From contig CAVUAE010000001.1 in NCBI GenBank assembly GCA_963739395.1, positions 1,094,056 to 1,158,055 on the forward strand: a stretch of DNA of 64,000 nt, read 5' to 3'. The translations under genes were made by a program, and so were the position numbers. Source of the stretch: an uncultured Chloroflexia bacterium. GTDB taxonomy: Bacteria > Chloroflexota > Dehalococcoidia > Dehalococcoidales > RBG-16-60-22. Of the stretch, positions 1 through 52,417 are shown in pieces (position 1 is the stretch's first letter; each line of letters opens with the position of its first letter). The notes below the pieces were generated by a model. The model searched no databases, was not told where the DNA came from, and was given only the letters and a program-made list of their open reading frames with translations.

Positions 1-1971
1 AAAGGAGCCACCATCTTCCCACAGAATATTGGTTTGGCAAGCACCTGGCAGCCAGACTTAATCGGTCGGATAACGACGACTATCCGCCAGCAGATGAGGA
101 CCGTTGGCATACACCAGGGTTTAGCTCCGGTACTCGATGTTACCCGCGACCCCCGCTGGGGAAGAGTGGAAGAGTCTTTCGGCGAAGACCCATACCTGGT
201 AGGGCAAATGGCGGTAGCTTACGTCCGGGGGCTGCAGGGGAATGATATTAAAAAGGGTATCGTCGCAACGACAAAGCATTTTGCCGGTCATGGCTTACCG
301 GAAGGAGGACTAAACTGCGCGCCATCGCATATCCCGCCGCGTTTATTCCGCGAGGTCTATCTTTATCCTTTCGAAAAGGCGGTCAAAGAAGGCGGCGTGC
401 TCTCGGTGATGAACGCCTACCACGAAATCGATGGCATACCATGTGCCGCTTCCGAAGAATTATTAACACATATTTTACGCAACGAATGGGGATTCGACGG
501 GGTGGTGGTTTCTGATTATTTCGCTATCGCCCAGCTAATGACCACCCATAAAATCGCCGCCGACTTAAGCGATGCTGCCGCGCTGGCGCTTCAAGCCGGG
601 CTTGATGTTGAGCTACCGTTTACTAACGCCTATGGAGAGCCGCTAGTAAAGGCGGTGAAAAAAGGAAAGGTTCCTATAGCTATTCTCAACCTCTCGGTAT
701 CGCGGGTATTGACTCTTAAGTACAGACTGGGGCTATTCGAAAACCCCTACGTCAACCCGGAAGCTGTCTTGAAGGTAACCGACACGCCGGTCGACCGGCA
801 GCTTGCCCTGGAGGCAGCGCATAAGTCGATTATTTTACTAAAGAATGATAAAAATCTACTCCCGTTAAATAAAGATATCCGCAGTATCGCGGTTATCGGT
901 CCTAACGCCGATAGCCAGAGGAATCTGCTGGGGGATTATACTTTCGCTTCCCACTCCGCCTTCGAAATAAAGAAAGATGAAAAGACCGGCGATGTCGGCC
1001 TTGTCATGAAAAATTTTAAAGAAGGTATGGTCGCTACACCCAAAGTAATCAGCGTCTTCGAGGGCATCAAAGCGGCCGTCAGTAAAAATACCAAGGTTTT
1101 CTACGCTAAAGGGTGCGATGTCCACAGTAGTAATAAAGACGGCTTTAATGAAGCTATTAAGGCGGCGCGGGGAGCGGATATAGCTATTGTTGTCGTAGGT
1201 GATAAGTCTGGTCTGATGCCGGACAATACCTCCGGGGAGATGCGCGACCGGGATATGTTAGCTCTGCCCGGCGTTCAGGAGGAGATGGTAAAAGCAGTTT
1301 ATGAAACCGGTACACCTGTCGTGCTGGTGCTGGTCAACGGGCGGCCATACACGATGCAATGGTTAGCGGAAAAAATACCCGCTATCGTCAATGCCTGGGA
1401 ACCCGGCGAAGAAGGTGGACGGGCAGTGGCTGACGTGCTTTTCGGCGACTACAATCCCGGCGGCAAACTGCCTATTTCCTTCCCGCTTAACGAAGGGCAA
1501 ATACCCACTTACTACGGACACAAACCATCCGGCAGGAAGTCAGACCCATGGACGGACTATGTTGATGGAAACGCCAGGCCGCTTTATGAGTTCGGTTACG
1601 GCTTAAGCTACACTAGTTTCGAGTTTAGTAACTTAAGAATAGAGTCAGCAAAAATACCCGTCAATGGTAAGCTTAAGATAACGGCCGACATTAAAAACAC
1701 CGGTAAAAGTGAGGGCGACGAGGTGGTCCAACTTTATATTAACGATGTCGTCGCTAGCGTTACCCGACCGGTCAAAGAGCTGAAAAGTTTCGAACGCGTC
1801 CACCTGAAACCCAACGAGAAAAAGACCGTCACTTTCGAGGTTGAGGCGGAGCAGCTTGCTTTTTACAACAGGAAAATGGAACGAAAAGTTGAGCCAGGTA
1901 TTTTTAAAGTAATGGTTGGCCGTTCTTCAGCGGACATTCTTTTAGAAGGAAAATTCGAAGTCACAAGGTAA
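1..1971 (+). CDS. Glycoside hydrolase family 3 beta-glucosidase (5' end outside window)
   Basis: Frame 1 is open from base 1 (KGATIFPQNIGLASTW...), so the ORF-track start at 34 is an internal TTG. GH3 hallmarks: RDPRWGRVEESFGEDP, KHFAGHG, GVVVSDY, and a C-terminal Fn3-like domain. Confidence 0.9.
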   Translation, partial: KGATIFPQNIGLASTWQPDLIGRITTTIRQQMRTVGIHQGLAPVLDVTRDPRWGRVEESFGEDPYLVGQMAVAYVRGLQGNDIKKGIVATTKHFAGHGLPEGGLNCAPSHIPPRLFREVYLYPFEKAVKEGGVLSVMNAYHEIDGIPCAASEELLTHILRNEWGFDGVVVSDYFAIAQLMTTHKIAADLSDAAALALQAGLDVELPFTNAYGEPLVKAVKKGKVPIAILNLSVSRVLTLKYRLGLFENPYVNPEAVLKVTDTPVDRQLALEAAHKSIILLKNDKNLLPLNKDIRSIAVIGPNADSQRNLLGDYTFASHSAFEIKKDEKTGDVGLVMKNFKEGMVATPKVISVFEGIKAAVSKNTKVFYAKGCDVHSSNKDGFNEAIKAARGADIAIVVVGDKSGLMPDNTSGEMRDRDMLALPGVQEEMVKAVYETGTPVVLVLVNGRPYTMQWLAEKIPAIVNAWEPGEEGGRAVADVLFGDYNPGGKLPISFPLNEGQIPTYYGHKPSGRKSDPWTDYVDGNARPLYEFGYGLSYTSFEFSNLRIESAKIPVNGKLKITADIKNTGKSEGDEVVQLYINDVVASVTRPVKELKSFERVHLKPNEKKTVTFEVEAEQLAFYNRKMERKVEPGIFKVMVGRSSADILLEGKFEVTR

Positions 1972-5122: not shown

Positions 5123-5929
5123 ATGAATGTTAAGGAAGTCGTCGAAATTGTATTAACGTTAAATGGTGGAAGAAAATTTGAAAAAACCTGCGACCAGCTT
5201 ATCGAAGGCAGCTGGGAGTATCAAGTGACCGGTATTGTTACGACATTTATGGCCACCGTCGAGGTAATTCGCCGGGCAATTAAAATGGGCTGCAACCTAA
5301 TCATTACCCATGAACCAACTTATTTTACTGGTTTAGACAACACAGACTGGGTAAAAGATGACTCGGTTTATCAGCAGAAAAAGGGTTTGATTGACGATAA
5401 TAAAATATCAATCTGGCGGTACCATGACCATATGCATAGCGGTAATGAAGACCTTATTTATGCCGGATTATTAAAAGACCTGGGATGGACGAAGTATTTA
5501 AACAAAGAATTCCCATTGCCGCATTGTTATACGATTCCTGTAACAGCAGTTAAAACTTTAGTTGGCTTTTTGAAGAAGACCCTCGGCATGAAGGTTATAC
5601 AAATCGTTGGCAACTCAGATATGAAATGCAGTCGAGTCGGCATACTAGTCGGCGGAGGCAGCCTTGGACTTGGCCGTGAAGAGATGCCAGCCAAGCTGAT
5701 GAACGATCAACAGCTGGATGTGATAATCTGCGGCGAAATCACCGAATGGACATTAAGCGCCTATGTTCGTGACGCCGCGGCTTTAAGCTTCAACAAAGCG
5801 ATGATTGTTGTAGGACATGAACGAAGCGAAGAACCCGGTATGAAAGAGCTGGCTAACCGACTACAGCCACTTTTAAAAGAAATTCCGGTTCAATTTGCAG
5901 ACGCCGAAGAGCCGTTTACATATCTATAA
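5123..5929 (+). CDS. NIF3-family dinuclear metal-centre protein
   Basis: NIF3 motifs ITHEPTYF, WRYHDHMH, VVGHERSEEPG. Confidence 0.8.
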   Translation: MNVKEVVEIVLTLNGGRKFEKTCDQLIEGSWEYQVTGIVTTFMATVEVIRRAIKMGCNLIITHEPTYFTGLDNTDWVKDDSVYQQKKGLIDDNKISIWRYHDHMHSGNEDLIYAGLLKDLGWTKYLNKEFPLPHCYTIPVTAVKTLVGFLKKTLGMKVIQIVGNSDMKCSRVGILVGGGSLGLGREEMPAKLMNDQQLDVIICGEITEWTLSAYVRDAAALSFNKAMIVVGHERSEEPGMKELANRLQPLLKEIPVQFADAEEPFTYL

Positions 5930-5957
5930 AATTACTTAATAGTTATTTAACTCTACC

Positions 5958-5973
5958 TACCACTGCACGAACA
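5958..5973. repeat. Left copy of 16-nt direct repeat TACCACTGCACGAACA (orphan dnaN 3'-end remnant)
   Basis: Identical 16-mer at 8421-8436. On the reverse strand it reads ATC CCA TTG TTC GTG CAG TGG TAG (IPLFVQW*), against dnaN's MPMFVQW*. Weaker similarity extends about 8-10 nt further. Confidence 0.8.
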
Positions 5974-6057
5974 ATGGGATGTCTGCCCTTTCATGCGTAC
6001 GTTTGTTCAGGCTAATTTGAAAAAATGTAGAATATTATTAGTCCGTTAATTGATAAC

Positions 6058-8229
6058 TCAACTAGCAAATTGGCTAATATCCCTGTAAAGTTGTTTTAAA
6101 TGATGGTCGGATAAATCTATCAGAGGTTCATACATGAAGGAATTGAGGTGGATAGCTTCCGGTGTCATCATTATGACCCTAGACAATAGTTTTCTAGATT
6201 CTTTGTCTGACGGAAATTTCTTTACAAAGTTGTCGAATAGCACTCTCGTTTGATTTCCACTAATATCTACTGTAACCGCGGGGTCATTTATTTTTTTTAT
6301 GATTGCTTTTTCAGCTTTGAGCCTTATTGCGATTGACAAAACGATTTTATTCTCAAGGTTAATAGTTTCGACATTATTGAGACAACACTCATCCGCCTGC
6401 TGAAAAATAAGAGAAATTACTGTGGTATTATCTGAGGTGATTGAAGGCGCAGGCGTAAATATAGTTCCATAGATAGATGCTAAATCGTTTAATGTAATCG
6501 AGTCTGTATCTGATTTGTAATGGAGTAATGACGTTAACTTTAAATACTCATGGTTAGATCGCCCTTTAGTATATTCAATAATGTTACGCGCCATTGGTAT
6601 AGTAGCTATTAGACAATTTTTATTGCCAGGCAGTTGATCTTTCCAACGTGTAAATGGAGTTCTTAAGCAATCAGCTTGTACCAATTTCACTTCTGATTCA
6701 GACTTGATTGACATCAGGCAATTCTCCCAATATACAGGAAGTCGGCTTTGTACTGTTCTAAAAAAATCAAAGTTATGAGTTAACAATAGAATTAGAAATT
6801 TTTTGGTTTCCTCTATTTCTTTCAAGTATTCAATGATCGCAAATTTGTTTTTGTAGTCAAAAGAATCTGCGATATCATCTAATACTAGAATAGTTTGATA
6901 ATCCTCTGTCTCACGTGCTCTTATCTCGTAAATTATATCTAATATATACAAAGCTCTTTTCTCGCCTGTACTTAATACACTTAACAATTCCACTTTATTC
7001 ATCTCACAGCGGTCAGTGCCATCTATATAATTAAAAGTTATTTTAGGTGTAATTTCCTTAAGAATCACTTCTTCTTGATTAGCTACTTCAATTTCGAAGG
7101 GTACTGTAAAACGTTCTTTAAAAATATTGATAACCTCTCGCCAACGAGTTTCTTGACTTCTTGCCTTATTAACAATTGAATCTATTTGTTTTTTACCTTC
7201 CTTAAAAACCTCAAGAAAATTTTTATAAAGTTCCTTCTCAGAAATTAGATAAGAAATCCATAGTTTCTTTTTGAAAGTATCAACACTAGCCAATTCAGGT
7301 AAAATTTTCATATTGTCTAATAGGTATTGATGAAACTTACGAAGTTCAGCATTACCCATAATCTTGAAATCAATTGAATTAAATTTATCCTTAAGTTCGG
7401 GATTATTTAATATTCGGTTTTCCTCTTCGGAAATAACTGCATCAAAATCAGATTGCGATGTAATTTCTGTTTTTTTAGAAGATGAATCTGATAGTAAAAT
7501 AGCATGTTTAGCGGAAAAGTATTTATTAGCTTTTAGGTTTTTTGATACAGTAGATGCGTTGTAGTGATTGAAGCCACCCTTTCTGAAATAATTTGAACTG
7601 TCGATAATTTCATTGTATTTATCAATATAGTCACACAACAAGGAATGCATGCCTGGTGATTTTAAAAAGGGTTCAGTCTTATCATTTATTACTTCGGAAT
7701 AAAGAATATCAGCAAAATCTGACGATGATGAATTAACATTATCTTGTAGTTTTGATAATAATAATGAACTGTCATTTGATTTATCATCGAAAGCTGATAG
7801 CATTAGTTGTTCAGCGTTCTTTTTTGTATTAGAAACTTTACCAATAGCTGATAATAGAGTAAGTCTAGAACTTTCAATAGATTTTGCTGTTGATTCGTAT
7901 TGTTTCCTTAATTCTTCGTCTACAAGCAAAGTAGATATACGTTCAGATTCGTATTTTTCGTCATATGAGTCAACGACAAATATATGAAGAGGGTTTAAAG
8001 AGTTACCTGTTTCGTCTTTAATATTACATAGTGCTGTTCTTTGAGTATAAATAGCGTCTCTAGGTTCTCTTGATTGGCTAAGGTCATTAAATACTTTTGC
8101 AAGGGATGTTTTCATTGCACCATTGGGAGCATAGAGTAAGAATGAGTTCGCATTAGTAGTAGCAAAGTCAAATTCATGTTTAAGTGCTTTTATTCCATAA
8201 CAATTTTTCAAATCAACGGAAATTTTCAT
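6058..8229 (-). CDS. AAA_13-like ABC-type ATPase with long coiled-coil insert and C-terminal effector-like domain (PrrC/RloC-like architecture)
   Basis: Degenerate Walker A LLYAPNGAMKTSLAKVF, ABC signature LSTGEKRALYIL, Walker B ILVLDDIADSFD, H-loop LLLTHNFDFF. About 300 aa of helical, low-complexity sequence lies between Walker A and the signature motif. The C-terminal 200 aa contain RNIIE...H...H. Confidence 0.65.
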   Translation of the reverse strand: MKISVDLKNCYGIKALKHEFDFATTNANSFLLYAPNGAMKTSLAKVFNDLSQSREPRDAIYTQRTALCNIKDETGNSLNPLHIFVVDSYDEKYESERISTLLVDEELRKQYESTAKSIESSRLTLLSAIGKVSNTKKNAEQLMLSAFDDKSNDSSLLLSKLQDNVNSSSSDFADILYSEVINDKTEPFLKSPGMHSLLCDYIDKYNEIIDSSNYFRKGGFNHYNASTVSKNLKANKYFSAKHAILLSDSSSKKTEITSQSDFDAVISEEENRILNNPELKDKFNSIDFKIMGNAELRKFHQYLLDNMKILPELASVDTFKKKLWISYLISEKELYKNFLEVFKEGKKQIDSIVNKARSQETRWREVINIFKERFTVPFEIEVANQEEVILKEITPKITFNYIDGTDRCEMNKVELLSVLSTGEKRALYILDIIYEIRARETEDYQTILVLDDIADSFDYKNKFAIIEYLKEIEETKKFLILLLTHNFDFFRTVQSRLPVYWENCLMSIKSESEVKLVQADCLRTPFTRWKDQLPGNKNCLIATIPMARNIIEYTKGRSNHEYLKLTSLLHYKSDTDSITLNDLASIYGTIFTPAPSITSDNTTVISLIFQQADECCLNNVETINLENKIVLSIAIRLKAEKAIIKKINDPAVTVDISGNQTRVLFDNFVKKFPSDKESRKLLSRVIMMTPEAIHLNSFMYEPLIDLSDHHLKQLYRDISQFAS

Positions 8230-8265
8230 ATTAACTCCTATGTATGGGGTTGAGAGTGTGCGTGT

Positions 8266-8294
8266 ATTATGCGCTTAGTGTTAAAATACGTCAA
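8266..8294 (-). promoter_or_regulatory. Sigma70-like promoter of the ATPase gene
   Basis: Reverse strand reads TTGACG - 17 nt - CATAAT, followed by RBS TAGGAG and ATG at 8229. Confidence 0.5.
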
Positions 8295-8363
8295 TATATG
8301 GGTAAAAAGAAGCGAGTAAAAAAAGCTTACAGTGGCTCGGCTCATTATTGGTCTGAACGTATG

Positions 8364-8391
8364 TAAAAAAAGGGGAGCATTTCTGCTCCCC
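8364..8391 (-). terminator. Rho-independent terminator downstream of dnaN
   Basis: 8-bp stem GGGGAGCA/TGCTCCCC (8372-8379 / 8384-8391) with loop TTTC. On the reverse strand it is followed by a 7-nt T-run (A-run 8365-8371 on plus). Confidence 0.7.
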
Positions 8392-8419
8392 CCTCGTTTT
8401 AATCAGGCTATTTCTTTAA

Positions 8420-9553
8420 TTACCACTGCACGAACATCGGCATGACAACGTGCGTGTAATTCTCTGACCCCACCGGACTGATAAGCCCCGGACTGGAAGG
8501 ATTAGTGATTGCCAGGGATACCTGCGATTCATGGAGGACGCTTAAAACATCGGTGAGGTACTTGCCGTTGAAAGCTATTTTGGCTTCGGCGCCCTCTACT
8601 GTGGCGTCGATTTCTCCAACGTCGTCGCCGATTTCTTCCGAGCGTGCCGAGACAGCCAGTTTGCCGGGATTCTTATCGTTGCTAGGTGTCACTACCAGGC
8701 GGACGATACCGCTGCCATCGCGCGCGAATATCGAGGCGGTCTTGGTGGCACGCAGGAATTCCGCCACGCTAACTATAACCCGTGTATTATAACTCTTGGG
8801 GATAAGCTGGGAGTAGTTAGGGAAGGTTCCCTGAACAAGCTGCGAGACTAATTCCGTACTCTTTAAACGGAACAAAACCTGACTCTTGTTGGGATTTAGC
8901 GTGAGGATAACGGCTTCTTCCTGGTCGCCGATAAGCCGATTTAATTCAGCTAAAGTGCGGGCGGGGATTATAACCTCGGTCTTCTCTTTGATTTTATCTT
9001 TAACCGGCATTTTAAAGACCGCCAGCCTGAAGCCATCAGCCGCAGCGAGGGTTAAGGCGCTACCTTCGAACTGGGTGCAGACGCCGGTCAGAACAGGACG
9101 TGATTCTTCGGTAGCGGCGGCGAAGACAACCTGGTTAATCGCCTGACGTAGAGCTTCAACTTCAACCTTGGTGGTGATGCCGTCATCAACGCTGGGGATG
9201 GGAGGAAATTCTTTAGCATCGACGCCGCTGATACGCGCTTCAAAACGGGCGCACTTAAGTCCTAATGTTTTCGTCTGCGGGGAGAGATTGACCGATATCG
9301 TTTCACCGGGTAATGAGCTAACGAATTCCGTAAGCAGTCGGGCTGGCACGGTAATGGAGCCCTCTTCTTCTATTTTGGCGCCAATCCAGCAGCTGATAGC
9401 CATTTCGAGATTAGTAGCGACGAGCTTCAAACGGCCTTCATCAGTGGCTAAAAGAACGTTATTAGTAATGGGCAAGGTCGTCCTGGTAGCTACCGCTCTC
9501 CCGACGATGCTCAATCCACGGTTAAGGTTTTCCTGAAGGCAGGTTAGTTTCAT
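8420..9553 (-). CDS. dnaN: DNA polymerase III beta sliding clamp
   Basis: 377 aa. MKLTCLQENLNRGLSIVGRAV... start, three-domain clamp length, C-terminal NYTHVVMPMFVQW. Confidence 0.93.
   Translation of the reverse strand: MKLTCLQENLNRGLSIVGRAVATRTTLPITNNVLLATDEGRLKLVATNLEMAISCWIGAKIEEEGSITVPARLLTEFVSSLPGETISVNLSPQTKTLGLKCARFEARISGVDAKEFPPIPSVDDGITTKVEVEALRQAINQVVFAAATEESRPVLTGVCTQFEGSALTLAAADGFRLAVFKMPVKDKIKEKTEVIIPARTLAELNRLIGDQEEAVILTLNPNKSQVLFRLKSTELVSQLVQGTFPNYSQLIPKSYNTRVIVSVAEFLRATKTASIFARDGSGIVRLVVTPSNDKNPGKLAVSARSEEIGDDVGEIDATVEGAEAKIAFNGKYLTDVLSVLHESQVSLAITNPSSPGLISPVGSENYTHVVMPMFVQW
8421..8436. repeat. Right copy of 16-nt direct repeat (functional dnaN 3' terminus)
   Basis: TACCACTGCACGAACA is identical to 5958-5973 and encodes the last codons of dnaN on the reverse strand. 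Confidence 0.8.
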
Positions 9554-10097: not shown

Positions 10098-11081
10098 TTA
10101 GCCCCCCACCTGGGAGAAAGGACGCCCCTTATGAACGATGCCTTCGGCGAGTTGATGTCCCCTGGGCTTATTGGCGGTGGCTTTGATAATTATTTCCTTA
10201 AGCTCCTCGACGGAGGCGCCGCGGCGGAGGGGTTCGCGTAAATCTATCTCATCCTCGTGGAGAAGGCAGAGGCGGAGTTTGCCATCCGCAGTGAGGCGGA
10301 GTCGGTTGCATTGATAACAGAAATGTTCGGTAACCGGGGTAATAAAACCTACCGTGCCTTTAGCGCCCGGGAAGCGGTAGTATTTGGCGGGTCCGTTGCC
10401 TTTATCCAGCTTGTATGGCTCCATCTTGCCTAAAAAGTCGAGCCGTTTTTTCATTTCTTTGACGGGGACGATGTCGTTAAAATTAAGACTTTCACCATTA
10501 ACAGGCATATGCTCGATGAAGCGTACATGCCAGCCGTCTTCGATGGTCTTGCGGGCGAAATCGGGGAGTTCGTCGTCGTTAATGCCAGCCATAACGACCA
10601 TGTTAATTTTAACGGGGGTGAGGCCTACTTTATTGGCGGTCTCGATACCTTTAAGCGTATCCTCAAGCTCGCCGCAGCGGGTAATTTGCTTAAAGCGTTC
10701 CGGCTTAAGAGTATCTAAACTCACGTTAACGCGCACTAAACCAGCCTTTTTAAGTTCAGCGGCGTACTTGGCGAGAAGGATGCCGTTGGTCGTCAGCGAA
10801 AGGTCTTTAATAGTTTTGATGCTAGCAATCATTTTTATTAGGTCGGGTAAGCCCAAGCGCACCAGCGGTTCGCCCCCGGTAATACGCACCCTGTCAATGC
10901 CGAGTTCGGCAGCGGCTTTAACGAGGGTGAAAATCTCCTCGTAACTCAAGATGTCGACGTGGGACATCAGCGAGATGCCATCCGGCGGCATGCAATAAAT
11001 ACAGCGCAGATTGCACCTGTCTGTCACCGAAATACGCAGGTAATTGATGCGACGCTGGAATGAATCGGCAAGCTTAGTCAT
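10098..11081 (-). CDS. moaA: GTP 3',8-cyclase (radical SAM)
   Basis: CNLRCIYC radical-SAM cluster motif and C-terminal CYQCNRLRLTADGKLRLCL. Start moved to ATG 11081 (MTKLADSF...), because the longer ORF-track N-terminus has no homology pattern and overlaps the divergent gene. Confidence 0.9.
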   Translation of the reverse strand: MTKLADSFQRRINYLRISVTDRCNLRCIYCMPPDGISLMSHVDILSYEEIFTLVKAAAELGIDRVRITGGEPLVRLGLPDLIKMIASIKTIKDLSLTTNGILLAKYAAELKKAGLVRVNVSLDTLKPERFKQITRCGELEDTLKGIETANKVGLTPVKINMVVMAGINDDELPDFARKTIEDGWHVRFIEHMPVNGESLNFNDIVPVKEMKKRLDFLGKMEPYKLDKGNGPAKYYRFPGAKGTVGFITPVTEHFCYQCNRLRLTADGKLRLCLLHEDEIDLREPLRRGASVEELKEIIIKATANKPRGHQLAEGIVHKGRPFSQVGG

Positions 11082-19951: not shown

Positions 19952-21112
19952 TTATTCATGAACCAGCAATGGATGTTGAGTGAAGAACCATCCTGGCCAT
20001 AAGCCTACAGATTCACTATATAATTTCGCCAGTAGTAGTTTGCCATCAACGTTAATCTGGATATCAGTAAATTGTATATTCCATGATTCCTTTGCTGAGG
20101 CAGCTATCCCGGCAGGGTCTTCAATACGCTCCTTTAAGAGCGAGACGTTCGCCTGGGCATTAGTGTCACTTTCATGATAAATAACTAAGGCGGTGTAATA
20201 TCCCTTTTCATCTTGACCAACACCAAAGCCGGAAGTGAGAAAATGTTTAAGCAGCGGACCGGGATTATCTATTTCAATGTCCTCTGGGCCGACGGTTTGA
20301 GATTCATCTCCCATAATGGCGGTGTAAGTGCCCAATCTGAATAATCCCTCGGCTAAAGAGGCGTACTCCGGCAGGTCGGCCAGACTATGACCTTGATTTT
20401 GACTGGCATCAATCATTAGCTTAACAGCCTCTACCGAAGGACCATAGAACAAATACTTATCGGTAACTGCCAGGGGCATAGCACGGCCTAACTCATCAAT
20501 ATGAGGAGGCAGCAATCTTGTAGTAAGGTGGTTCTGTAAACCATCGCCCCAGCTATGGATGGTAATGCCGCGATATTCTTCGGTAGTGTAATCCTCTTTT
20601 GCCCAAGAAGGCCATTCATCTTGATGGCTTAAGGTATCTTTGGTGGCTTGAGGGTCGAATCTACCGATAGCGGCAACTCCTATTTTCGGTGTCATGCCGA
20701 ACTGGATTTCTGCATCGACACAAGTGACATCATAGCCGATGTATTCTTTCCTATTAGTTTCCTTAATTATTGGTTCAAAGGCGAAACGTCCATAGCCGGT
20801 AATATATGAGCCTGATGCCGCTGCCATCATCACGATATCATCCTTATTAACCGCGTTGTACATATCCTCCGGCTTGGTTAAGACGATACCGGCATCTTTA
20901 TAGATACGGGCGTAATCAAGGAGGGTGAAAGAAAAAGGCATGCCTTCGCCCACCGCGGACGCTGGCACCAGATTAAGGAGTTCCATGAAAGTATTGGATG
21001 TTTCGGTTTCAGAACTCCCGTCGCAGCTAGCGAATACAGGTAGAATTAATATCAAGACGCTCAAACAAACCAGGAGACATAGGCAATGACTTAGTATCTT
21101 TTTCCTAATCAT
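19952..21112 (-). CDS. Secreted lipoprotein, function unknown
   Basis: Start chosen at MIRKKILSHCLCLLVCLSVLILILPVFASCDG, a signal peptide with a lipobox-like FASC. Confidence 0.6.
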   Translation of the reverse strand: MIRKKILSHCLCLLVCLSVLILILPVFASCDGSSETETSNTFMELLNLVPASAVGEGMPFSFTLLDYARIYKDAGIVLTKPEDMYNAVNKDDIVMMAAASGSYITGYGRFAFEPIIKETNRKEYIGYDVTCVDAEIQFGMTPKIGVAAIGRFDPQATKDTLSHQDEWPSWAKEDYTTEEYRGITIHSWGDGLQNHLTTRLLPPHIDELGRAMPLAVTDKYLFYGPSVEAVKLMIDASQNQGHSLADLPEYASLAEGLFRLGTYTAIMGDESQTVGPEDIEIDNPGPLLKHFLTSGFGVGQDEKGYYTALVIYHESDTNAQANVSLLKERIEDPAGIAASAKESWNIQFTDIQINVDGKLLLAKLYSESVGLWPGWFFTQHPLLVHE

Positions 21113-21167
21113 GGCAATGGAAATTATAAGCCCAGAGTGATGAGAAGTCAATAGAAAAGAACCTTAA

Positions 21168-21236
21168 ACCATACCGGTGAAAACCGGAATCCAGTAAAAA
21201 CAGGTAATAACTGGATCCCGTTTTTCAACGGGATGG
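21168..21236. repeat. Structured intergenic repeat, copy 1
   Basis: CCATACCGGTGAAAACCGGAATCCAGT...ACTGGATCCCGTTTTTCAACGGGATGG, forming three small hairpins. Second copy at 37105-37172. Confidence 0.8.
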
Positions 21237-21266: not shown

Positions 21267-21608
21267 TTATTTTTGTGAAGTTACACTTTTTGATTTAGCG
21301 TATAACTCTAGAAGTTTGAACATCTGATCAAGATGAAACTGAATTCTGCCATTCTCATAATCTGGAATTTTACTAATGATAAATCCGGGTTTTCCCTTAT
21401 TTTTTCCACCTATGCCAAATCGTTGTTCTTTGTCTTTAAGCGCCATTTTGTTTATATAATCGAGTGTTTCTCTAGCTGCAATACTTAAAGCAGTGGAGTA
21501 CATCTGTTTATAAAGCTTATCAATCTCTCCCTTATCAAATAGTTTCTTAATATTTAAGCTCAAGTTTCCTATGATATTTTCTACTATGTTTATTCTAGGT
21601 GAAACCAT
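21267..21608 (-). CDS. AT-rich hypothetical protein (113 aa) immediately downstream of nrdJ
   Basis: Starts 10 nt after the nrdJ stop on the same strand. Codon usage and composition differ visibly from nrdJ. No recognisable motif. Confidence 0.55.
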   Translation of the reverse strand: MVSPRINIVENIIGNLSLNIKKLFDKGEIDKLYKQMYSTALSIAARETLDYINKMALKDKEQRFGIGGKNKGKPGFIISKIPDYENGRIQFHLDQMFKLLELYAKSKSVTSQK

Positions 21609-24252: not shown

Positions 24253-25080
24253 CTATCCATCTAAAAAAGAAAGAGATACAATATATCTATTTACTCCGTA
24301 CCCAAACCCTTTTATTTCAGAAGGGAAACGTTTTTTCCCCTTACCGAACTTATATTGTAAATCTCCCTTTAGCAGTGTATTGAAATTGTAGGCATCATGT
24401 AATATAGAGGGTGGATTTACGTTTTTATTTAATGGTGAAAATAAAGTATTACCAATCTTTTTCTTCTTAGGCCATGATAACTGAAGTGAATTTGGTTGGT
24501 TTTTACGTGGTGTCCATTTTGAAACATAACAAGGTTTTTGACTAGTTTCAGAGACTCTTATTGCAGCTGATTGTATTGAGACTTTGAATAAATCAGCCAA
24601 ACGCTCAATAGATTGTATTGACGTTCCTAGTTCATCTAAGTATTTGCTAAACACTGATGTTGGCATCAATAACTCTGTGGCAGCCTCATCACATAGTTTT
24701 TCTACGACTTTAGAACGTTTTCTTTGTACAACTTGCGGATTGAATGTCCTGTGTTCAATAGTATTTATATATTGTTCCAATTTTAACGCACTATATAATA
24801 AATGTCCGATTTCATGGGCACAAGAAAAATTTTGTCTTACCAAAGGGTCATTTATATTTAGTTTTATTTTAGATCCACTATCAAATCGTAGAAGGACACC
24901 TCCAGATTTACCCGCTTTGCCAAGGTCCGTTTTTTCAATGCTTTGAACTCCAACTAAAGAAGCATATTCTTCTGATAAAAATGGTGGGTTATCATGCCCT
25001 CTTTTGGCTATCAACTCGGTTACAAGCTGTCGCGCCCGTTCAATAATTAGTTCAGAAGCTGTTTCTAACTTAATAACCAT
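24253..25080 (-). CDS. ImmA/IrrE-family (COG2856-like) zinc metallopeptidase with an uncharacterised C-terminal domain
   Basis: HEXXH motif in FSCAHEIGHLLYS, followed by the downstream EAATELLMP typical of ImmA/IrrE. About 95 aa of unknown C-terminal sequence. AT-rich. Confidence 0.75.
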   Translation of the reverse strand: MVIKLETASELIIERARQLVTELIAKRGHDNPPFLSEEYASLVGVQSIEKTDLGKAGKSGGVLLRFDSGSKIKLNINDPLVRQNFSCAHEIGHLLYSALKLEQYINTIEHRTFNPQVVQRKRSKVVEKLCDEAATELLMPTSVFSKYLDELGTSIQSIERLADLFKVSIQSAAIRVSETSQKPCYVSKWTPRKNQPNSLQLSWPKKKKIGNTLFSPLNKNVNPPSILHDAYNFNTLLKGDLQYKFGKGKKRFPSEIKGFGYGVNRYIVSLSFLDG

Positions 25081-27474: not shown

Positions 27475-27541
27475 CTCTCCCTTTACAAAAGGGAGAGGAT
27501 GAATTTTTACTCTTTCGTAAAGAGGAACCAAGGGAGTTTTT
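27460..27541. repeat. Direct repeat A flanking the DUF559 gene
   Basis: AAAAACCCTCT..CTCTCCCTTTACAAAAGGGAGAGG...CTCTTTCGTAAAGAGG.A.CAAGGGAGTTTTT contains two hairpins. A near-copy lies at 27897-27985. Confidence 0.8.
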
Positions 27542-27896
27542 ATAAATTGTTAAGCTTTTGTTCAATTACTTCAATTACACCATCAATATTGTTGAATATA
27601 TCTATATTCGTGAACCTTAGAACTGTTAATCCCATACTCTCTATAAACTCATCTCTGATCCAATCGTATTTTTTTGTATTGTTGGAAAAATGTTGTCCAC
27701 CATCTACTTCAACCACTAACATTGCTTTATGGCAATAGAAGTCAGCAATATATTCTCCCAAAGGCTTTTGACGTGAGAACATAAAACCTTTTAGCTGTTT
27801 CATCCTAAGCTTAGACCACAATAATTTTTCAGCATCTGTCATGTTGTTTCTAAGTTCTTGGGATAGCTGCTTCAATTTTGGGTTATATAGATGCAT
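27540..27896 (-). CDS. DUF559 (Vsr-like endonuclease fold) protein
   Basis: LRNNMTDAEKLLWSKLR...GFMFSRQKPLGEYIADFYCHKAMLVVEVDGGQH matches the DUF559 pattern. Confidence 0.85.
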   Translation of the reverse strand: MHLYNPKLKQLSQELRNNMTDAEKLLWSKLRMKQLKGFMFSRQKPLGEYIADFYCHKAMLVVEVDGGQHFSNNTKKYDWIRDEFIESMGLTVLRFTNIDIFNNIDGVIEVIEQKLNNL

Positions 27897-27985
27897 AAAA
27901 ACCCTCTTTTGTCTCCCTTTAAAAAAGGGAGAGGTAATTCCTTTTCCGTCTCCCTCTTTCGTAAAGAGGGATAAAGGGAGTTTTT
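27897..27985. repeat. Direct repeat B flanking the DUF559 gene
   Basis: Same two-hairpin unit as 27460-27541, in the same orientation. Confidence 0.8.
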
Positions 27986-28023: not shown

Positions 28024-28926
28024 TTACTTCAGTCCTAACGGAAGATAATTAGCTACAAATCGATATGTATCTGCACCTGAATCCGTAGTTTCAATTTTAT
28101 TATGGAAAAATGAATGAATAAAATTTATTGTTGAATCATTTATATTATAGGTTGTACCAAGAATTCTTTTATTTGATAAATCGGCATTATTAATAAGTAA
28201 TTTTAGAGTTGTTTGATCATACCCAAAACCTATAAACACAAGATTAAAAGCATCTCTTATTGCTGCTTGAGCATCACGGAAATCATTTGTATCATCTAAC
28301 CGATCTGATGTAATTCTGATACCTTCCGCAGCATTTTTAAGTATTCCCGCAACACTAAAACTCTCTCCGTAGTTTATTTCTGGATAACGGCCAAGACTTC
28401 CATGAGCATGTATAATTTTAAGAGTAGCTAGTTTTTGCGTGGCATGTTGGGTTAAGTCATCTGGGCAGTTATACTGTATATTTTTGTGTAAAAAGTGTTC
28501 TAGTGATCTATCGTAATTTAAAGTAACAAACACAATATTATTCGCATTTGGTTTATTATTTTCAAAATCTAACACATTGTATAAATGACTATACCAATCT
28601 TTTTGAGGAAATAAATAATCTGTTCTTTCGAGAGGTAATAATGTATAGGCTATTGCATATGCACCGATTTCTCTAAATTTGCTCTTTTTTTCAAGAAATA
28701 TATCTATTGTTGGATAACTAGTGTATTTTAAAGCTTCAGCGAAATTGTCGGCAAGTAAATTGTCAAATTTATTATGTGCAAGAGTATTAACGTGATTTAT
28801 ATTGATTCCAGAGATCATTATGGTTTTAAGTTCTGTACCTAATGGTAGGCCATAAGGTTTACTCGCTCTAGCCCCAAGAACAAATACTGTCTTTTTATTA
28901 AGATCGATTGGTTGTATTTCTACCAT
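28024..28926 (-). CDS. Stand-alone SIR2-like (SIR2_2 / ThsA-type) protein, putative NAD+-consuming effector
   Basis: Four blocks are collinear with the ThsA SIR2 domain: VFVLGARASKPYGLP (GAGxS loop), VTLNYDRSLEHFL (TTNYD), IIHAHGSL (catalytic His), VFIGFGYDQTTL. Very AT-rich. ATG 28926 lies 3 nt after the ribD stop, with SD GGAGGAG inside the ribD 3' end. Confidence 0.7.
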   Translation of the reverse strand: MVEIQPIDLNKKTVFVLGARASKPYGLPLGTELKTIMISGININHVNTLAHNKFDNLLADNFAEALKYTSYPTIDIFLEKKSKFREIGAYAIAYTLLPLERTDYLFPQKDWYSHLYNVLDFENNKPNANNIVFVTLNYDRSLEHFLHKNIQYNCPDDLTQHATQKLATLKIIHAHGSLGRYPEINYGESFSVAGILKNAAEGIRITSDRLDDTNDFRDAQAAIRDAFNLVFIGFGYDQTTLKLLINNADLSNKRILGTTYNINDSTINFIHSFFHNKIETTDSGADTYRFVANYLPLGLK

Positions 28927-30027: not shown

Positions 30028-30160
30028 ATAACGGAAAATGGTGAGTCTGTCGAACCATAACGGAAAATGGTGAGTCTGTCGAACCATAACGTAAAGAGGT
30101 GAGCCTGTCGAACCATAACGTAAAATGGTGAGCCTGTCGAACCATAACGTAAAGAGGGGA
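30028..30160. repeat. Tandem repeat, 29-nt period, about 4.5 copies
   Basis: Unit ATAACG[G/T]AAA[A/G][T/A]GGTGAG[T/C]CTGTCGAACC starts at 30028, 30057, 30086, 30115 and 30144, with no spacers. Confidence 0.9.
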
Positions 30161-30238: not shown

Positions 30239-30314
30239 GGGCCGTTAGCTCAGTTGGTAGAGCAGTGGACTTTTAATCCATTGGTCGCAGGTTCGAATCC
30301 TGCACGGCCTACCA
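30239..30314 (+). tRNA. tRNA-Lys (anticodon TTT), CCA encoded
   Basis: GGGCCGT-TA-GCTC..GAGC-A-GTGGA-CTTTTAA-TCCAT-TGGTC-GCAGG-TTCGAAT-CCTGC-ACGGCCT-A-CCA. Confidence 0.93.
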
Positions 30315-37104: not shown

Positions 37105-37172
37105 CCATTCCGGTGAAAACCGGAATCCAGTCATGTGCCATATCAACTAGATCCCGGCTTTCGTCGGGATGG
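37105..37172. repeat. Structured intergenic repeat, copy 2
   Basis: CCATTCCGGTGAAAACCGGAATCCAGT...CTAGATCCCGGCTTTCGTCGGGATGG; compare 21168-21236. Confidence 0.8.
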
Positions 37173-37315
37173 TTTGTGGTAAATGGGGGACAAGGTAGTA
37201 AGGTGGGGTTTTCAGTTAGATATAAAAAGTATAAGTGATTGGCGGTGTAACTCAAACAAGCCAATATAGTATAATAATTACGTCACTTTTTCACGTAAAT
37301 TTCACGGAGGCAATC

Positions 37316-51166: not shown

Positions 51167-52417
51167 TTAAGTTCGATTTAAAACTTGAAAGCCATTTCCT
51201 CGAGGAAGATAGTTTAATTCAAATGAACTTGGTAAAGGATTTTGAGCATTGTTATTCCTAATACAAAACAGTTGCCACCACAGTGTTTGATTCGAATCAT
51301 TGGGATTGATATTTTTCTTTTGAATTATTTGGTGCCATATAACAACGCCACTCACTAAGGGTGCGGATTTTAGAGCTTGAGCTATACTTTGACCGAGATT
51401 GAAAAACTGATTTAGACCGTAGAAATCGGGCGTGTATAAATAAATCACAGCAGGAGAGTTTTGTGTCAATTGTTTACGTGCATCATTAATAAGGTCATAT
51501 ATGGCATTAACATGATCAGGGGTTATTTCAAAATGTACGACAACAACTTTAGGATTTCGGTAATAAATTAAACCATTACGATTTTCCTTGTGACATTTAT
51601 GGCATATTCCTACATAAGTAGTTTGATTACCTACACCACAATTAATCATAAAATTCCTAATTGGCTCAGGAACATGTTCTTCTGGACCGAAAGGTTCGAA
51701 TGCGGTTGTTACTATATCTTTATCGTTAGGTAAGAGAATAGTTGTTTCAACTTCGAAGCTACCAATAGAACAAGAAAAAGCCTCACCTTTTAGTAATAAT
51801 GCCTCTATACTTCTCACAAGATTAGGGATGACAGTTTTATTTGGTATTTGTTTTGTTGATATATATATCCCGTAATTAGTAGTTGAGTGGTCTAATAAGG
51901 AACTAACAAGGGAAATTATTTCTGAACGCATATCATCAATCAGAATAAATTGTGGTGTTATAATGTTTCTTGCTTTACATTCGATATATGCAGGAAGTCC
52001 TCCAATAGATATTTCAAAGTCAGGCGTGGCTGATTTACCAGCTTTTAATGAAATAATGGGTTGTTTTAGTATATTTACGTAAGACCAAGCAACTGTTGCT
52101 TCTATTTCCGTAGCACAAAATTCCGCAATGGATTGTTTTGACCGTTTTATAAGTTGGTTAAAGAAGACATCATCGGTGATAACTTTTCCATCTGAACGAC
52201 GAGTCGGAAAATTAGATAATTCTCGCATAATCTTGGAGAAACTCAAAGCCCTTACTATATCTTGATTTACACTCGGATCTTTAGACGCATATAGAGCGCG
52301 TTTTAAGGGATGCATTTTTTCTTTGCAGTTATTGTTCCACTGTGGACCAAGCTGTACTTTCAGCCATTTTAAGAGAGTATTTACATCGGCATTTTCAGTA
52401 TCAATTAAGTAGTTCAT
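51167..52417 (-). CDS. AT-rich orphan protein with a PD-(D/E)xK nuclease-like motif
   Basis: 416 aa. E(x)n...TPDFEISIGGLPAYIECKARN fits the E...PD...ExK pattern. The rest is unrecognisable. Flanked by AT-rich non-coding DNA. Confidence 0.5.
   Translation of the reverse strand: MNYLIDTENADVNTLLKWLKVQLGPQWNNNCKEKMHPLKRALYASKDPSVNQDIVRALSFSKIMRELSNFPTRRSDGKVITDDVFFNQLIKRSKQSIAEFCATEIEATVAWSYVNILKQPIISLKAGKSATPDFEISIGGLPAYIECKARNIITPQFILIDDMRSEIISLVSSLLDHSTTNYGIYISTKQIPNKTVIPNLVRSIEALLLKGEAFSCSIGSFEVETTILLPNDKDIVTTAFEPFGPEEHVPEPIRNFMINCGVGNQTTYVGICHKCHKENRNGLIYYRNPKVVVVHFEITPDHVNAIYDLINDARKQLTQNSPAVIYLYTPDFYGLNQFFNLGQSIAQALKSAPLVSGVVIWHQIIQKKNINPNDSNQTLWWQLFCIRNNNAQNPLPSSFELNYLPRGNGFQVLNRT

Follow-up and report, generated by a model that had tools for sequence, protein, structure and literature searches.

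How did a single gene for an ATPase of the ATP-binding cassette (ABC) type come to lie, in AT-rich DNA, between two copies of the 3' end of dnaN, and can it still move? The question is raised by a 2.4-kb islet in the 64,000-nucleotide stretch of an uncultured Chloroflexia bacterium analyzed here (hereafter, the window). Based on comparison with related genomes and metagenome contigs, we conclude that the islet is very probably a cassette without a recombinase and belongs to a family of integrative elements, the large serine recombinase (LSR) of which inserts into the last codons of dnaN in Dehalococcoidales.

The 16-mer TACCACTGCACGAACA occurs twice in the window, at 5958-5973 and 8421-8436, with no third copy even at 2 mismatches, and is thus not the common repeat that the initial annotation of this DNA, made from the sequence alone, had allowed for. 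As that annotation proposed, the right copy belongs to the dnaN end: it lies inside the terminal codons of the gene (minus strand), the product of which keeps its ending ...MPMFVQW*. The left copy translates as IPLFVQW*. The gene scores 299.7 bits against TIGR00663 (cutoff, 137.65) and encodes all three beta-clamp domains (Pfam and NCBIfam). Between the copies, the DNA is as AT-rich as had been noted, with a guanine-plus-cytosine (GC) content of 0.29 to 0.36 over 6000-8400 versus 0.45 to 0.55 on either side, and of 0.33 for the islet versus 0.47 for the whole window. Block shuffles yielded 0.47 exact 16-nt direct-repeat pairs per window, and the real window has 10. Because exact 16-nt repeats are not rare in 64 kb, the significance of this one lies in its place and in the comparative data, not in its length. 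The features of the locus are as follows.

8420..9553, minus strand: dnaN, DNA polymerase III beta clamp, 377 aa, the insertion target (Pfam/NCBIfam); product unaltered by the insertion
8420..8444, minus strand: proximal core CATGCCGATGTTCGTGCAGTGGTAA, the final 7 codons and stop of dnaN, attB/attL-type; matches site-profile positions 29-53 only and holds the 16-mer
8365..8391, minus strand: intrinsic-terminator-like hairpin GGGGAGCAGAAATGCTCCCC and T-run, 26 nt past the dnaN stop (sequence detection)
8266..8294, minus strand: sigma-70-like promoter match TTGACG-17-CATAAT upstream of the ATPase gene (10/12 positions)
6058..8229, minus strand: cargo gene for a 723-aa ABC-type ATPase, PADLOC family PDC-S46, GC content of ~0.33 (PADLOC, AlphaFold2, Foldseek)
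5982..6007, minus strand: element-side "P arm" AACAAACGTACGCATGAAAGGGCAGA (given on the dnaN strand), not dnaN derived; site-profile positions 3-28
5957..5981, minus strand: distal core CATCCCATTGTTCGTGCAGTGGTAG, a displaced second dnaN end that with the P arm makes up an attR/attP-type site (repeat and profile)
5961..8300, minus strand: block homologous to 5160-7496 of metagenome contig L082, the cargo end of an intact element, at 79.7% nucleotide identity (blastn)

The 723-aa ATPase gene that the annotation placed between the copies is present as an open reading frame (ORF) at 6058-8229 on the minus strand, and a spacer of 50 nt separates it from the distal site. Exact-sequence lookups of the window dnaN and ATPase matched no record. 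The annotation credited the gene with its own promoter; TTGACG-17-CATAAT is indeed there, within the block common to the window and L082, but promoter-like matches in the AT-rich islet do not outnumber those in shuffles, which makes it weak evidence for a promoter. The terminator said to serve dnaN also exists as a hairpin and T-run, but it resembles the terminator that relatives naturally have after dnaN, which makes the left boundary more complicated than had been assumed.

We compared the window with the dnaN loci of 80 species-level genomes, which are Dehalococcoidales-type metagenome-assembled genomes (MAGs) with dnaN 75 to 95% identical to that of the window. Nearly all have moaC before dnaN, as the window does; downstream of dnaN, no gene is conserved across the 80 genomes, and the commonest family there is a recombinase. 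Of the 80 genomes, 21 have a second dnaN end 0.2 to 6.8 kb downstream of the first and invariably oriented like it (L030 has a third copy), and at least 32 have an insertion at the dnaN end, recognized by a second dnaN end or by an LSR gene or remnant. The GC content of the DNA between the copies is consistently below that of the core genome. The closest genomes (dnaN 95%, 92%, and 91% identical) are without the ATPase, and their alignment to the window ends at or just past the dnaN stop: at 8420 in L001 (dnaN 95% identical), at 8414 in L003, and at 8364 in L002, where it continues through the post-dnaN hairpin. Vertical inheritance of the ATPase gene in a compositionally normal context, the outcome that would have spoken against insertion, was thus not what we found, given also that the gene is AT-rich in all four contexts examined (33 to 35% GC). 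The genes beyond the islet in the window, for NIF3 and an esterase, lie downstream of dnaN in none of the 80 genomes.

At least 12 of the 80 contigs stop at the dnaN stop codon or within ∼40 nt of it, 8 of these inside the last codons (contigs ending at the dnaN end are L008, L017, L021, L024, L025, L036, L044, L052, L061, L065, L069, and L077). We attribute these breaks to a variable or repeated junction that disrupts assembly.

A site profile was built from the distal copies, and the dnaN ends of the 80 genomes were scored against it. Every dnaN end matches positions 29-53 only (25 nt), in keeping with the ∼25 nt of similarity that had marked the left copy as a displaced second dnaN end. Distal copies match positions 3-53, and the left copy in the window spans 51 nt (5957-6007). 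The ∼26 additional conserved nucleotides form an arm that is not dnaN derived and has few variants between genomes (21 distal sites aligned). The arm pattern was found in at least 120 metagenome contigs; the pooled loci include, among the matches listed, 96 cores of the dnaN type and 121 sites at which the arm adjoins a full core. The arm type of the window also occurs at the far ends of L082, L130, and L156 and beside the LSR gene in L119, and a GGGGAGCAGAAATGCTCCCC-type terminator hairpin stands 18 to 29 nt past 16 dnaN-type cores and 10 arm-bearing sites.

By sequence comparison, these data show the dnaN end as the putative attB and the ∼26-nt arm plus the 25-nt copy of the dnaN end as the predicted attP, which the LSR gene crosses. 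In the inserted state so reconstructed, the dnaN end is intact, and the displaced end behind the arm would mark the far boundary. What the initial annotation called an att-like scar is therefore att-like but more than a scar, being a full attR/attP-like site with its conserved element-side arm.

Other properties of the site were less telling. Variation by codon position was 36/29/36 over 13 arms, so there is no 3-nt periodicity, and folding of the distal site in the manner of attC was no better than that of shuffles (z = +0.66 and +0.63 on the two strands). The dnaN site has modest dyad symmetry (z = −2.0) that is partly specific to the window, and we left it out of the evidence. The motif ACGCA[CT]G lies 8 nt from the CC in dnaN and 14 nt from it in the arm, the dnaN motif being degenerate across genomes; this spacing may parallel the outward shift of the zinc-ribbon motif in LSR attP half-sites, and we treat it as a mere lead. 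Arm-bearing sites were also observed on the opposite strand several kilobases upstream of dnaN (L022, 3279-3316, minus; L024, 5379-5413, minus), so the family of arm sites is not strictly confined to the region downstream of the gene.

The recombinase is best seen in relatives. In a motif screen of all loci, the sole kind of recombinase near dnaN was a serine recombinase of 510 to 570 aa, immediately downstream and convergent; no tyrosine recombinase was found next to dnaN in any locus, and the neighboring window genes are moaC and moaA by Pfam. An LSR gene adjoins the att site in eight relatives (L023, L040, L079, L082, L130, L156, L223, and L224). The Pfam scan, which covered L023, L040, and L079, placed Resolvase, Recombinase, and Zn_ribbon_recom domains in their dnaN-adjoining LSRs, and an LSR coding sequence cut by the contig end adjoins dnaN in L006, L028, and L029. 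Remnants of the LSR 3' end lie beside dnaN in eight further loci (L022, L030 [twice], L053, L062, L063, L068, L072, and L080); L030, L053, L062, and L063 combine such a remnant at the near end with an arm-bearing distal site. These genes at the same position of dnaN, together with the intact element on L082, bear out the proposal of site-specific integration into the 3' end of dnaN.

The LSR genes also overlap their target. The last seven LSR codons are the antisense of the final codons of dnaN and encode the ending ...T-x-x-[QR]-T-[SW]-A-stop, the TGA stop being the antisense of the TCA within GTC ATG of dnaN. Among the best 120 homologues of one LSR, 75 have the ...T[SW]A* ending, which corresponds to the antisense of the dnaN end and hence to the integrated state, and nine read on as ...[GAQR]C[LT]..., the translated arm; past ...[GA]CL..., this read-through tail is poorly conserved. 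Where dnaN has GTA ATG or a similar variant (L040, 5201-5349; L223, 11514-11638), the LSR has no stop at that point, and its ORF extends 40 or more codons into the dnaN antisense, giving forms of 545 to 553 aa. The family reaches cultured Dehalococcoides mccartyi, from which an LSR cluster comprises 52 sequences (WP_011929270.1). In the complete D. mccartyi genome CP179927.3, a 504-aa LSR gene overlaps dnaN by 26 nt, and an arm-bearing site 8.8 kb further on is followed by another recombinase-type flank.

A homologue of the window ATPase with 76% protein identity (P0004) is encoded on metagenome contig L082, which has the following order.

2-133: dnaN end
108-1643, reverse strand: LSR gene
after the LSR gene: five small genes, one of them Rep_trans-like
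5234-7399: ATPase gene
7448-7500: arm site with degenerate core, at the far end
7531-7583: second arm site

Aligned by blastn, positions 8300-5961 of the window match positions 5160-7496 of L082 at 79.7% nucleotide identity, across the promoter region, gene, arm, and core. The dnaN 3' ends of the two are only 71.9% identical, and from this difference we infer that the ATPase cassette has moved between lineages. After its dnaN end, L082 continues with the flank GTAGGCACGAATCAG..., which differs from that of the window. By this alignment, the part of such an element that the window keeps appears to be limited to its far end, with promoter, ATPase gene, arm, and core, and a terminator lies between that block and dnaN.

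Complete integrated elements of 6 to 7 kb, with dnaN, LSR, cargo, and arm site, were found on L130, L156, and L107, and L125 has a similar LSR element with a left flank that is not dnaN. The 7,673-nt contig L119 has an exact 99-nt terminal overlap and thus closes into a 7,574-bp circular assembly, in which arm and core run straight into the LSR gene and the ORF reads through both (...TIEQTWACLPFHAYVWAV..., 538 aa). Since the periodicity count gave no signal, the coding status of the arm rests on this read-through and on the nine database LSRs. L119 additionally carries genes for an Mrr-type restriction enzyme and a Rep_trans-like protein; searched against PHROGs, cargo of this type gave only an endonuclease-type match, to the Rep_trans-like gene.

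These layouts suggest how the system might work. Strand exchange would take place where the common core begins on its left, near the CC in ATG|CC|G, because to the left of it distal copies have ATC CC where dnaN has ATG, and because truncated secondary sites lose similarity soon past the CC. The right half-site is identical in attB and attP, so integration would regenerate an attB-like junction beside dnaN, leave an attP-like one at the far end, and allow repeated insertion next to dnaN, older units being pushed outward; tandem arrays would be the result. Any unit between a dnaN-type core and an arm-bearing site would in principle be excisable. On integration, the C-terminal tail of the LSR, 10 to 40 aa long, would be replaced by ...[SW]A*. 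The window cassette would either have lost its recombinase module or have come without one, moved by an LSR acting in trans. Such recombinase-less cassettes may include a dnaN end and terminator of their own and move in that form; alternatively, an additional rearrangement could have produced this arrangement.

Arrays do exist. Among the matches listed, single contigs have as many as five arm-bearing sites, successive sites are spaced by a median of 979 nt (10 to 90% range, 256 to 3704 nt), and LSR pieces follow only 6 of the 121 arm-bearing sites. Related cassettes occupy differing array positions in different contigs, and five loci have the layout of core, terminator, cargo, and arm site in common. 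A dense array of three 0.3- to 0.6-kb units was observed in L043 (1209-2691), and L187 has 8 site matches within 14.7 kb. In L193 and L136, dnaN is followed by 5 arm-bearing sites and no intact LSR gene, with a short, weak LSR-like fragment kept in L136. Several sites are truncated soon past ...CCSATG.

The cargo between the dnaN-end copies is unrelated from genome to genome. It includes a radical-SAM protein, a tubulin/CetZ-like protein, an FG-GAP protein, a glycosyltransferase with a GH26 enzyme, a MalT/LuxR regulator, a beta-lactamase-fold protein, a short-chain dehydrogenase (SDR), an ArsP permease, parts of an Opp-type transporter, and heliorhodopsin. Defense-related cargo is frequent in the dnaN-end elements, with Type II, IIG, and IV restriction systems and ParDE. 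Two single-gene cassettes between a dnaN end and an arm site encode heliorhodopsin (L076, 5562-6362; Pfam E = 6e-96) and a tubulin/CetZ-like GTPase (L026, 9219-10454), both of which are unusual cargo for mobile cassettes in Chloroflexota.

Several points weigh against reading the islet as a cassette of this family. As the annotation had reported, no recombinase is left: tblastn (E < 1e-3) detected no LSR gene or remnant of the dnaN-end family in the islet or the 64-kb window, so the role of a recombinase at this locus is read from relatives, and we class the unit as a recombinase-less derivative, not an autonomous element. None of the 80 genomes has a clean empty site, in which the NIF3 flank would follow dnaN without a break, because no two genomes agree in what lies downstream of the gene. 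By its layout, the circular L119 assembly is a putative attP configuration, but two identical tandem copies would assemble alike. Finally, the 55 nt after the window dnaN stop are unlike the recombinase-side flank of L082 and like the native dnaN terminator flank of uninserted relatives, a native-looking flank that simple internal deletion of an L082-like element does not produce. That last point bears on how the cassette arose. A complete L082-like element might have integrated and later lost its LSR module by deletion, leaving an immobile relic; LSR 3'-end remnants beside dnaN in eight genomes show that decay of this kind occurs, the complete element on L082 ends in the same ATPase gene and arm, and the window is without any LSR. 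We nevertheless regard this history as possible but somewhat doubtful, for the bases after dnaN are a native-looking spacer and terminator rather than an L082-type flank, both sites in the window are intact, and the five loci with core, terminator, cargo, and arm site suggest a recurring cassette form, not random deletions. Arrival of a ready-made, recombinase-less unit (right part of the core, terminator, ATPase gene, and arm), moved by the LSR of another element, as has been proposed for pseudo-SCC elements and for ssrA islands that lack an integration module, has chances that we put at a little under even, slightly above those of decay in place. It accommodates the arrays in which LSR pieces are few, the shifting array positions of related cassettes, and the greater similarity of window and L082 in the cassette than in their dnaN 3' ends; moreover, attB and attP have the dnaN end as their common right half, and hybrid sites may therefore stay substrates. 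Canonical LSRs, on the other hand, need a directionality factor for attL × attR recombination, and for no recombinase-less cassette did we see a direct sign of excision. The earlier statement that the cargo appears fixed is not established: neither site is damaged, and the clade is rich in cognate recombinases, which makes mobilization in trans possible.

Explanations outside the LSR family fare far worse than a cassette of dnaN-end elements. Small, often single-gene cassettes arrayed at a fixed platform, each ending in a conserved site of ∼50 nt, do look integron-like, but a tyrosine recombinase working on folded attC-like or dif-like sites is highly improbable, given that the motif screen found only LSRs next to dnaN, that the site is conserved in sequence and not in structure and folds no better than shuffles, and that LSR genes physically overlap it. 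Less credible still is a chance 16-mer, with the ATPase gene acquired independently of it, for instance through homologous recombination or the decay of a prophage: about 0.5 exact 16-nt repeats are expected per 64 kb, yet this one coincides exactly with the dnaN end, bounds a compositional islet, and is extended by an arm found at 121 other sites among the matches listed, and the same cassette with its arm sits within the LSR element of L082. We rejected a prophage remnant, since the arm pattern has 0 matches in viral contigs and the relatives of the LSR there are at most 36% identical to it. Returning to the LSR-borne cassette, one may go further and see in the dnaN end the platform of an integron-like gene capture run by an LSR, with the ATPase islet a live cassette and not a scar. 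We hold this extension to be rather unlikely; in it, recombinase-less cassettes of ∼1 kb may stay excisable and reinsertable by any resident LSR, the C terminus of which may switch between the free and the integrated state.

The 723-aa cargo protein matches PDC-S46 of PADLOC along its full length (E = 6.1e-262; 869 bits; residues 2-720 on model positions 3-717 of 719). Against Pfam, it gave only a subthreshold SMC_N match and no match to AAA_13 at E ≤ 1; four homologues (P0013, P0014, P0040, and P0057) score 38 to 57 bits against AAA_13 (gathering score, 36), over the ATPase C-lobe only. Some 4,182 homologues occur in Chloroflexota, Desulfobacteraceae, Bacteroidales, Ignavibacteria, Dojkabacteria, and Methanosarcinales. 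The AlphaFold2 model has a predicted local distance difference test score (pLDDT) of 87 and by Foldseek resembles Rad50/SMC heads with a helical insert, matches at E = 2e-5 to 1e-3 including ATPases of the Lamassu and retron Ec83/IA systems; the template-modeling scores (TM-scores) of these matches are low because the protein is multidomain. A second, helical domain is made up of residues 500-723 (pLDDT 89); for this domain, a fold search gave no significant PDB match, HEPN proteins having the highest probability (2q00; probability 0.77; E∼1). Sequence searches of the PDB with the ATPase and with its alignment profile likewise returned nothing significant. Across the homologues, R548, N549, H570, H694, and N696 are invariant and E552 is near-invariant, a pattern that likely marks an active site. 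R548-x3-E552...H570 may resemble the Arg/Glu/His triad of PrrC. The match of those homologues to AAA_13, the family of ABC-ATPase nucleases of the PrrC/RloC type, is confined to the C-lobe. The Rad50/SMC-like head and helical insert of the window ATPase model are also features of RloC.

The same gene turns up at other kinds of site. In L081, a homologue 81.6% identical in nucleotides to the window gene ends next to tRNA-Lys(ttt) (10200-10457), with a 17-nt partial tRNA repeat GACACCCTGATTAAAAG just past its stop, which looks like a different integration hotspot with the same cargo. In L084 and L085, a homologue lies near a tyrosine-integrase fragment. The presence of PDC-S46 on mobile cargo in at least 3 insertion contexts supports its candidacy as a defense gene, although a literature search without subscription journals found no paper on PDC-S46. 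Our best reading, guided by the structural model, is a mobile single-gene anti-phage defense candidate with a predicted ATP-driven sensor head and a putative C-terminal effector that may be a nuclease.

The general architecture closely matches that of the ssrA islands of Dehalococcoides and parallels that of staphylococcal cassette chromosome (SCC) elements. In ssrA islands, a serine recombinase gene on the reverse strand adjoins attL, a 20-bp repeat of the target 3' end is present, and a conserved nontarget motif lies upstream of each repeat; the islands are tandem, with variable cargo, and some are without an integration module and are termed "cis-mobilizable" (PMC3146451). McMurdie et al. 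likened them in 2011 to SCC (PMC3146451). The dnaN-end elements occur in the same bacterial order, likewise have a serine recombinase of ∼500 to 540 aa on the reverse strand beside attL, lie between the target gene and a directly repeated ∼20 to 25 bp of its 3' end, have a short conserved nontarget motif just upstream of the repeat, and include tandem islands and module-less members. Unlike ssrA islands, they target the protein-coding dnaN and not the transfer-messenger RNA gene, their LSR ORF overlaps the last codons of the target in antisense and spans attP, a Rep_trans-like protein is present while the DsiA/ParB/Mom set was not detected in them, and many units are only ∼1 kb.

As in SCCmec and pseudo-SCC elements (rlmH/orfX; CcrAB or CcrC), as these are generally known, an LSR inserts at the 3' end of a housekeeping gene that is kept active, with flanking direct repeats, tandem accretion, and recombinase-less cassettes beside recombinase-bearing ones. 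Phylum, target, and recombinase subfamily differ from those of SCC, and the dnaN-end elements are smaller (∼6 to 9 kb, with cassettes of ∼1 kb) and known from sequence alone. With integron cassettes they have in common arrays of small, often single-gene, functionally diverse units, each ending in a recombination site, beside a fixed platform; unlike integrons, they have no IntI next to dnaN and no attC-like hairpin, their sites are conserved in sequence, and some cassettes have a promoter of their own. Mycobacteriophage BPs, reportedly described by Broussard et al. in 2013, is said to have its attP inside an ORF, so that integration swaps the C terminus of a protein. The dnaN-end attP likewise lies inside an ORF and the C terminus is swapped, but here the affected gene is that of the recombinase itself. 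What is new is the protein-coding essential target read in antisense by the LSR, the LSR ORF that spans attP, and the abundance of ∼1-kb units; in a literature search, with subscription journals outside its reach, dnaN was nowhere described as a site of integration.

With the dnaN-end elements, Dehalococcoidales have another system of site-specific islands besides those at ssrA, and one that is sharply defined by its target (the last 25 nt of dnaN), a recognizable attP arm, and a cognate LSR family. Because this family occurs in cultured D. mccartyi, the system is open to experiment. It accounts for the frequent breaks of MAG contigs at the dnaN end in Dehalococcoidales and offers a practical hotspot signature, and a scan for arm plus core is a simple marker for accessory genes (defense, heliorhodopsin, and transporters) in streamlined genomes. 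It also adds a natural set of LSR, attB, and attP with an unusual geometry, the recombinase ORF spanning attP.

Elsewhere in the window, an exact 16-nt direct repeat (CTCTTTCGTAAAGAGG, 27510-27525 and 27954-27969) surrounds a 118-aa ORF for a DUF559/Vsr-like endonuclease (27540-27896), which from its flanks may be another small inserted unit. Near it, at 24253-25080 and 28024-28926, are genes for a CapP/ImmA-like metallopeptidase (PADLOC capP; E = 3e-23) and for a protein with a weak likeness to SIR2 (E = 1e-7). The 48- to 54-kb region is an AT-rich stretch with an orphan 416-aa ORF (51167-52417). Judged by sequence features, these genes and this stretch may be further accessory or defense DNA. 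At 30028-30160, just upstream of tRNA-Lys(ttt) (30239-30314), there are tandem copies, each ∼29 nt long, of ...CTGTCGAACCATAACGTAAAGAGG..., which have the GTAAAGAGG motif in common with the repeat at 27510. An exact 22-nt repeat, CCGGTGAAAACCGGAATCCAGT, has two copies 16 kb apart (21174-21195 and 37110-37131), both of which were below the Rfam gathering score. The first copy sits between two minus-strand ORFs (19952-21151 and 21267-21608) and is a few hundred bases downstream of an 866-aa ribonucleotide-reductase-like gene, and the second lies upstream of a 642-aa ORF at 37235.

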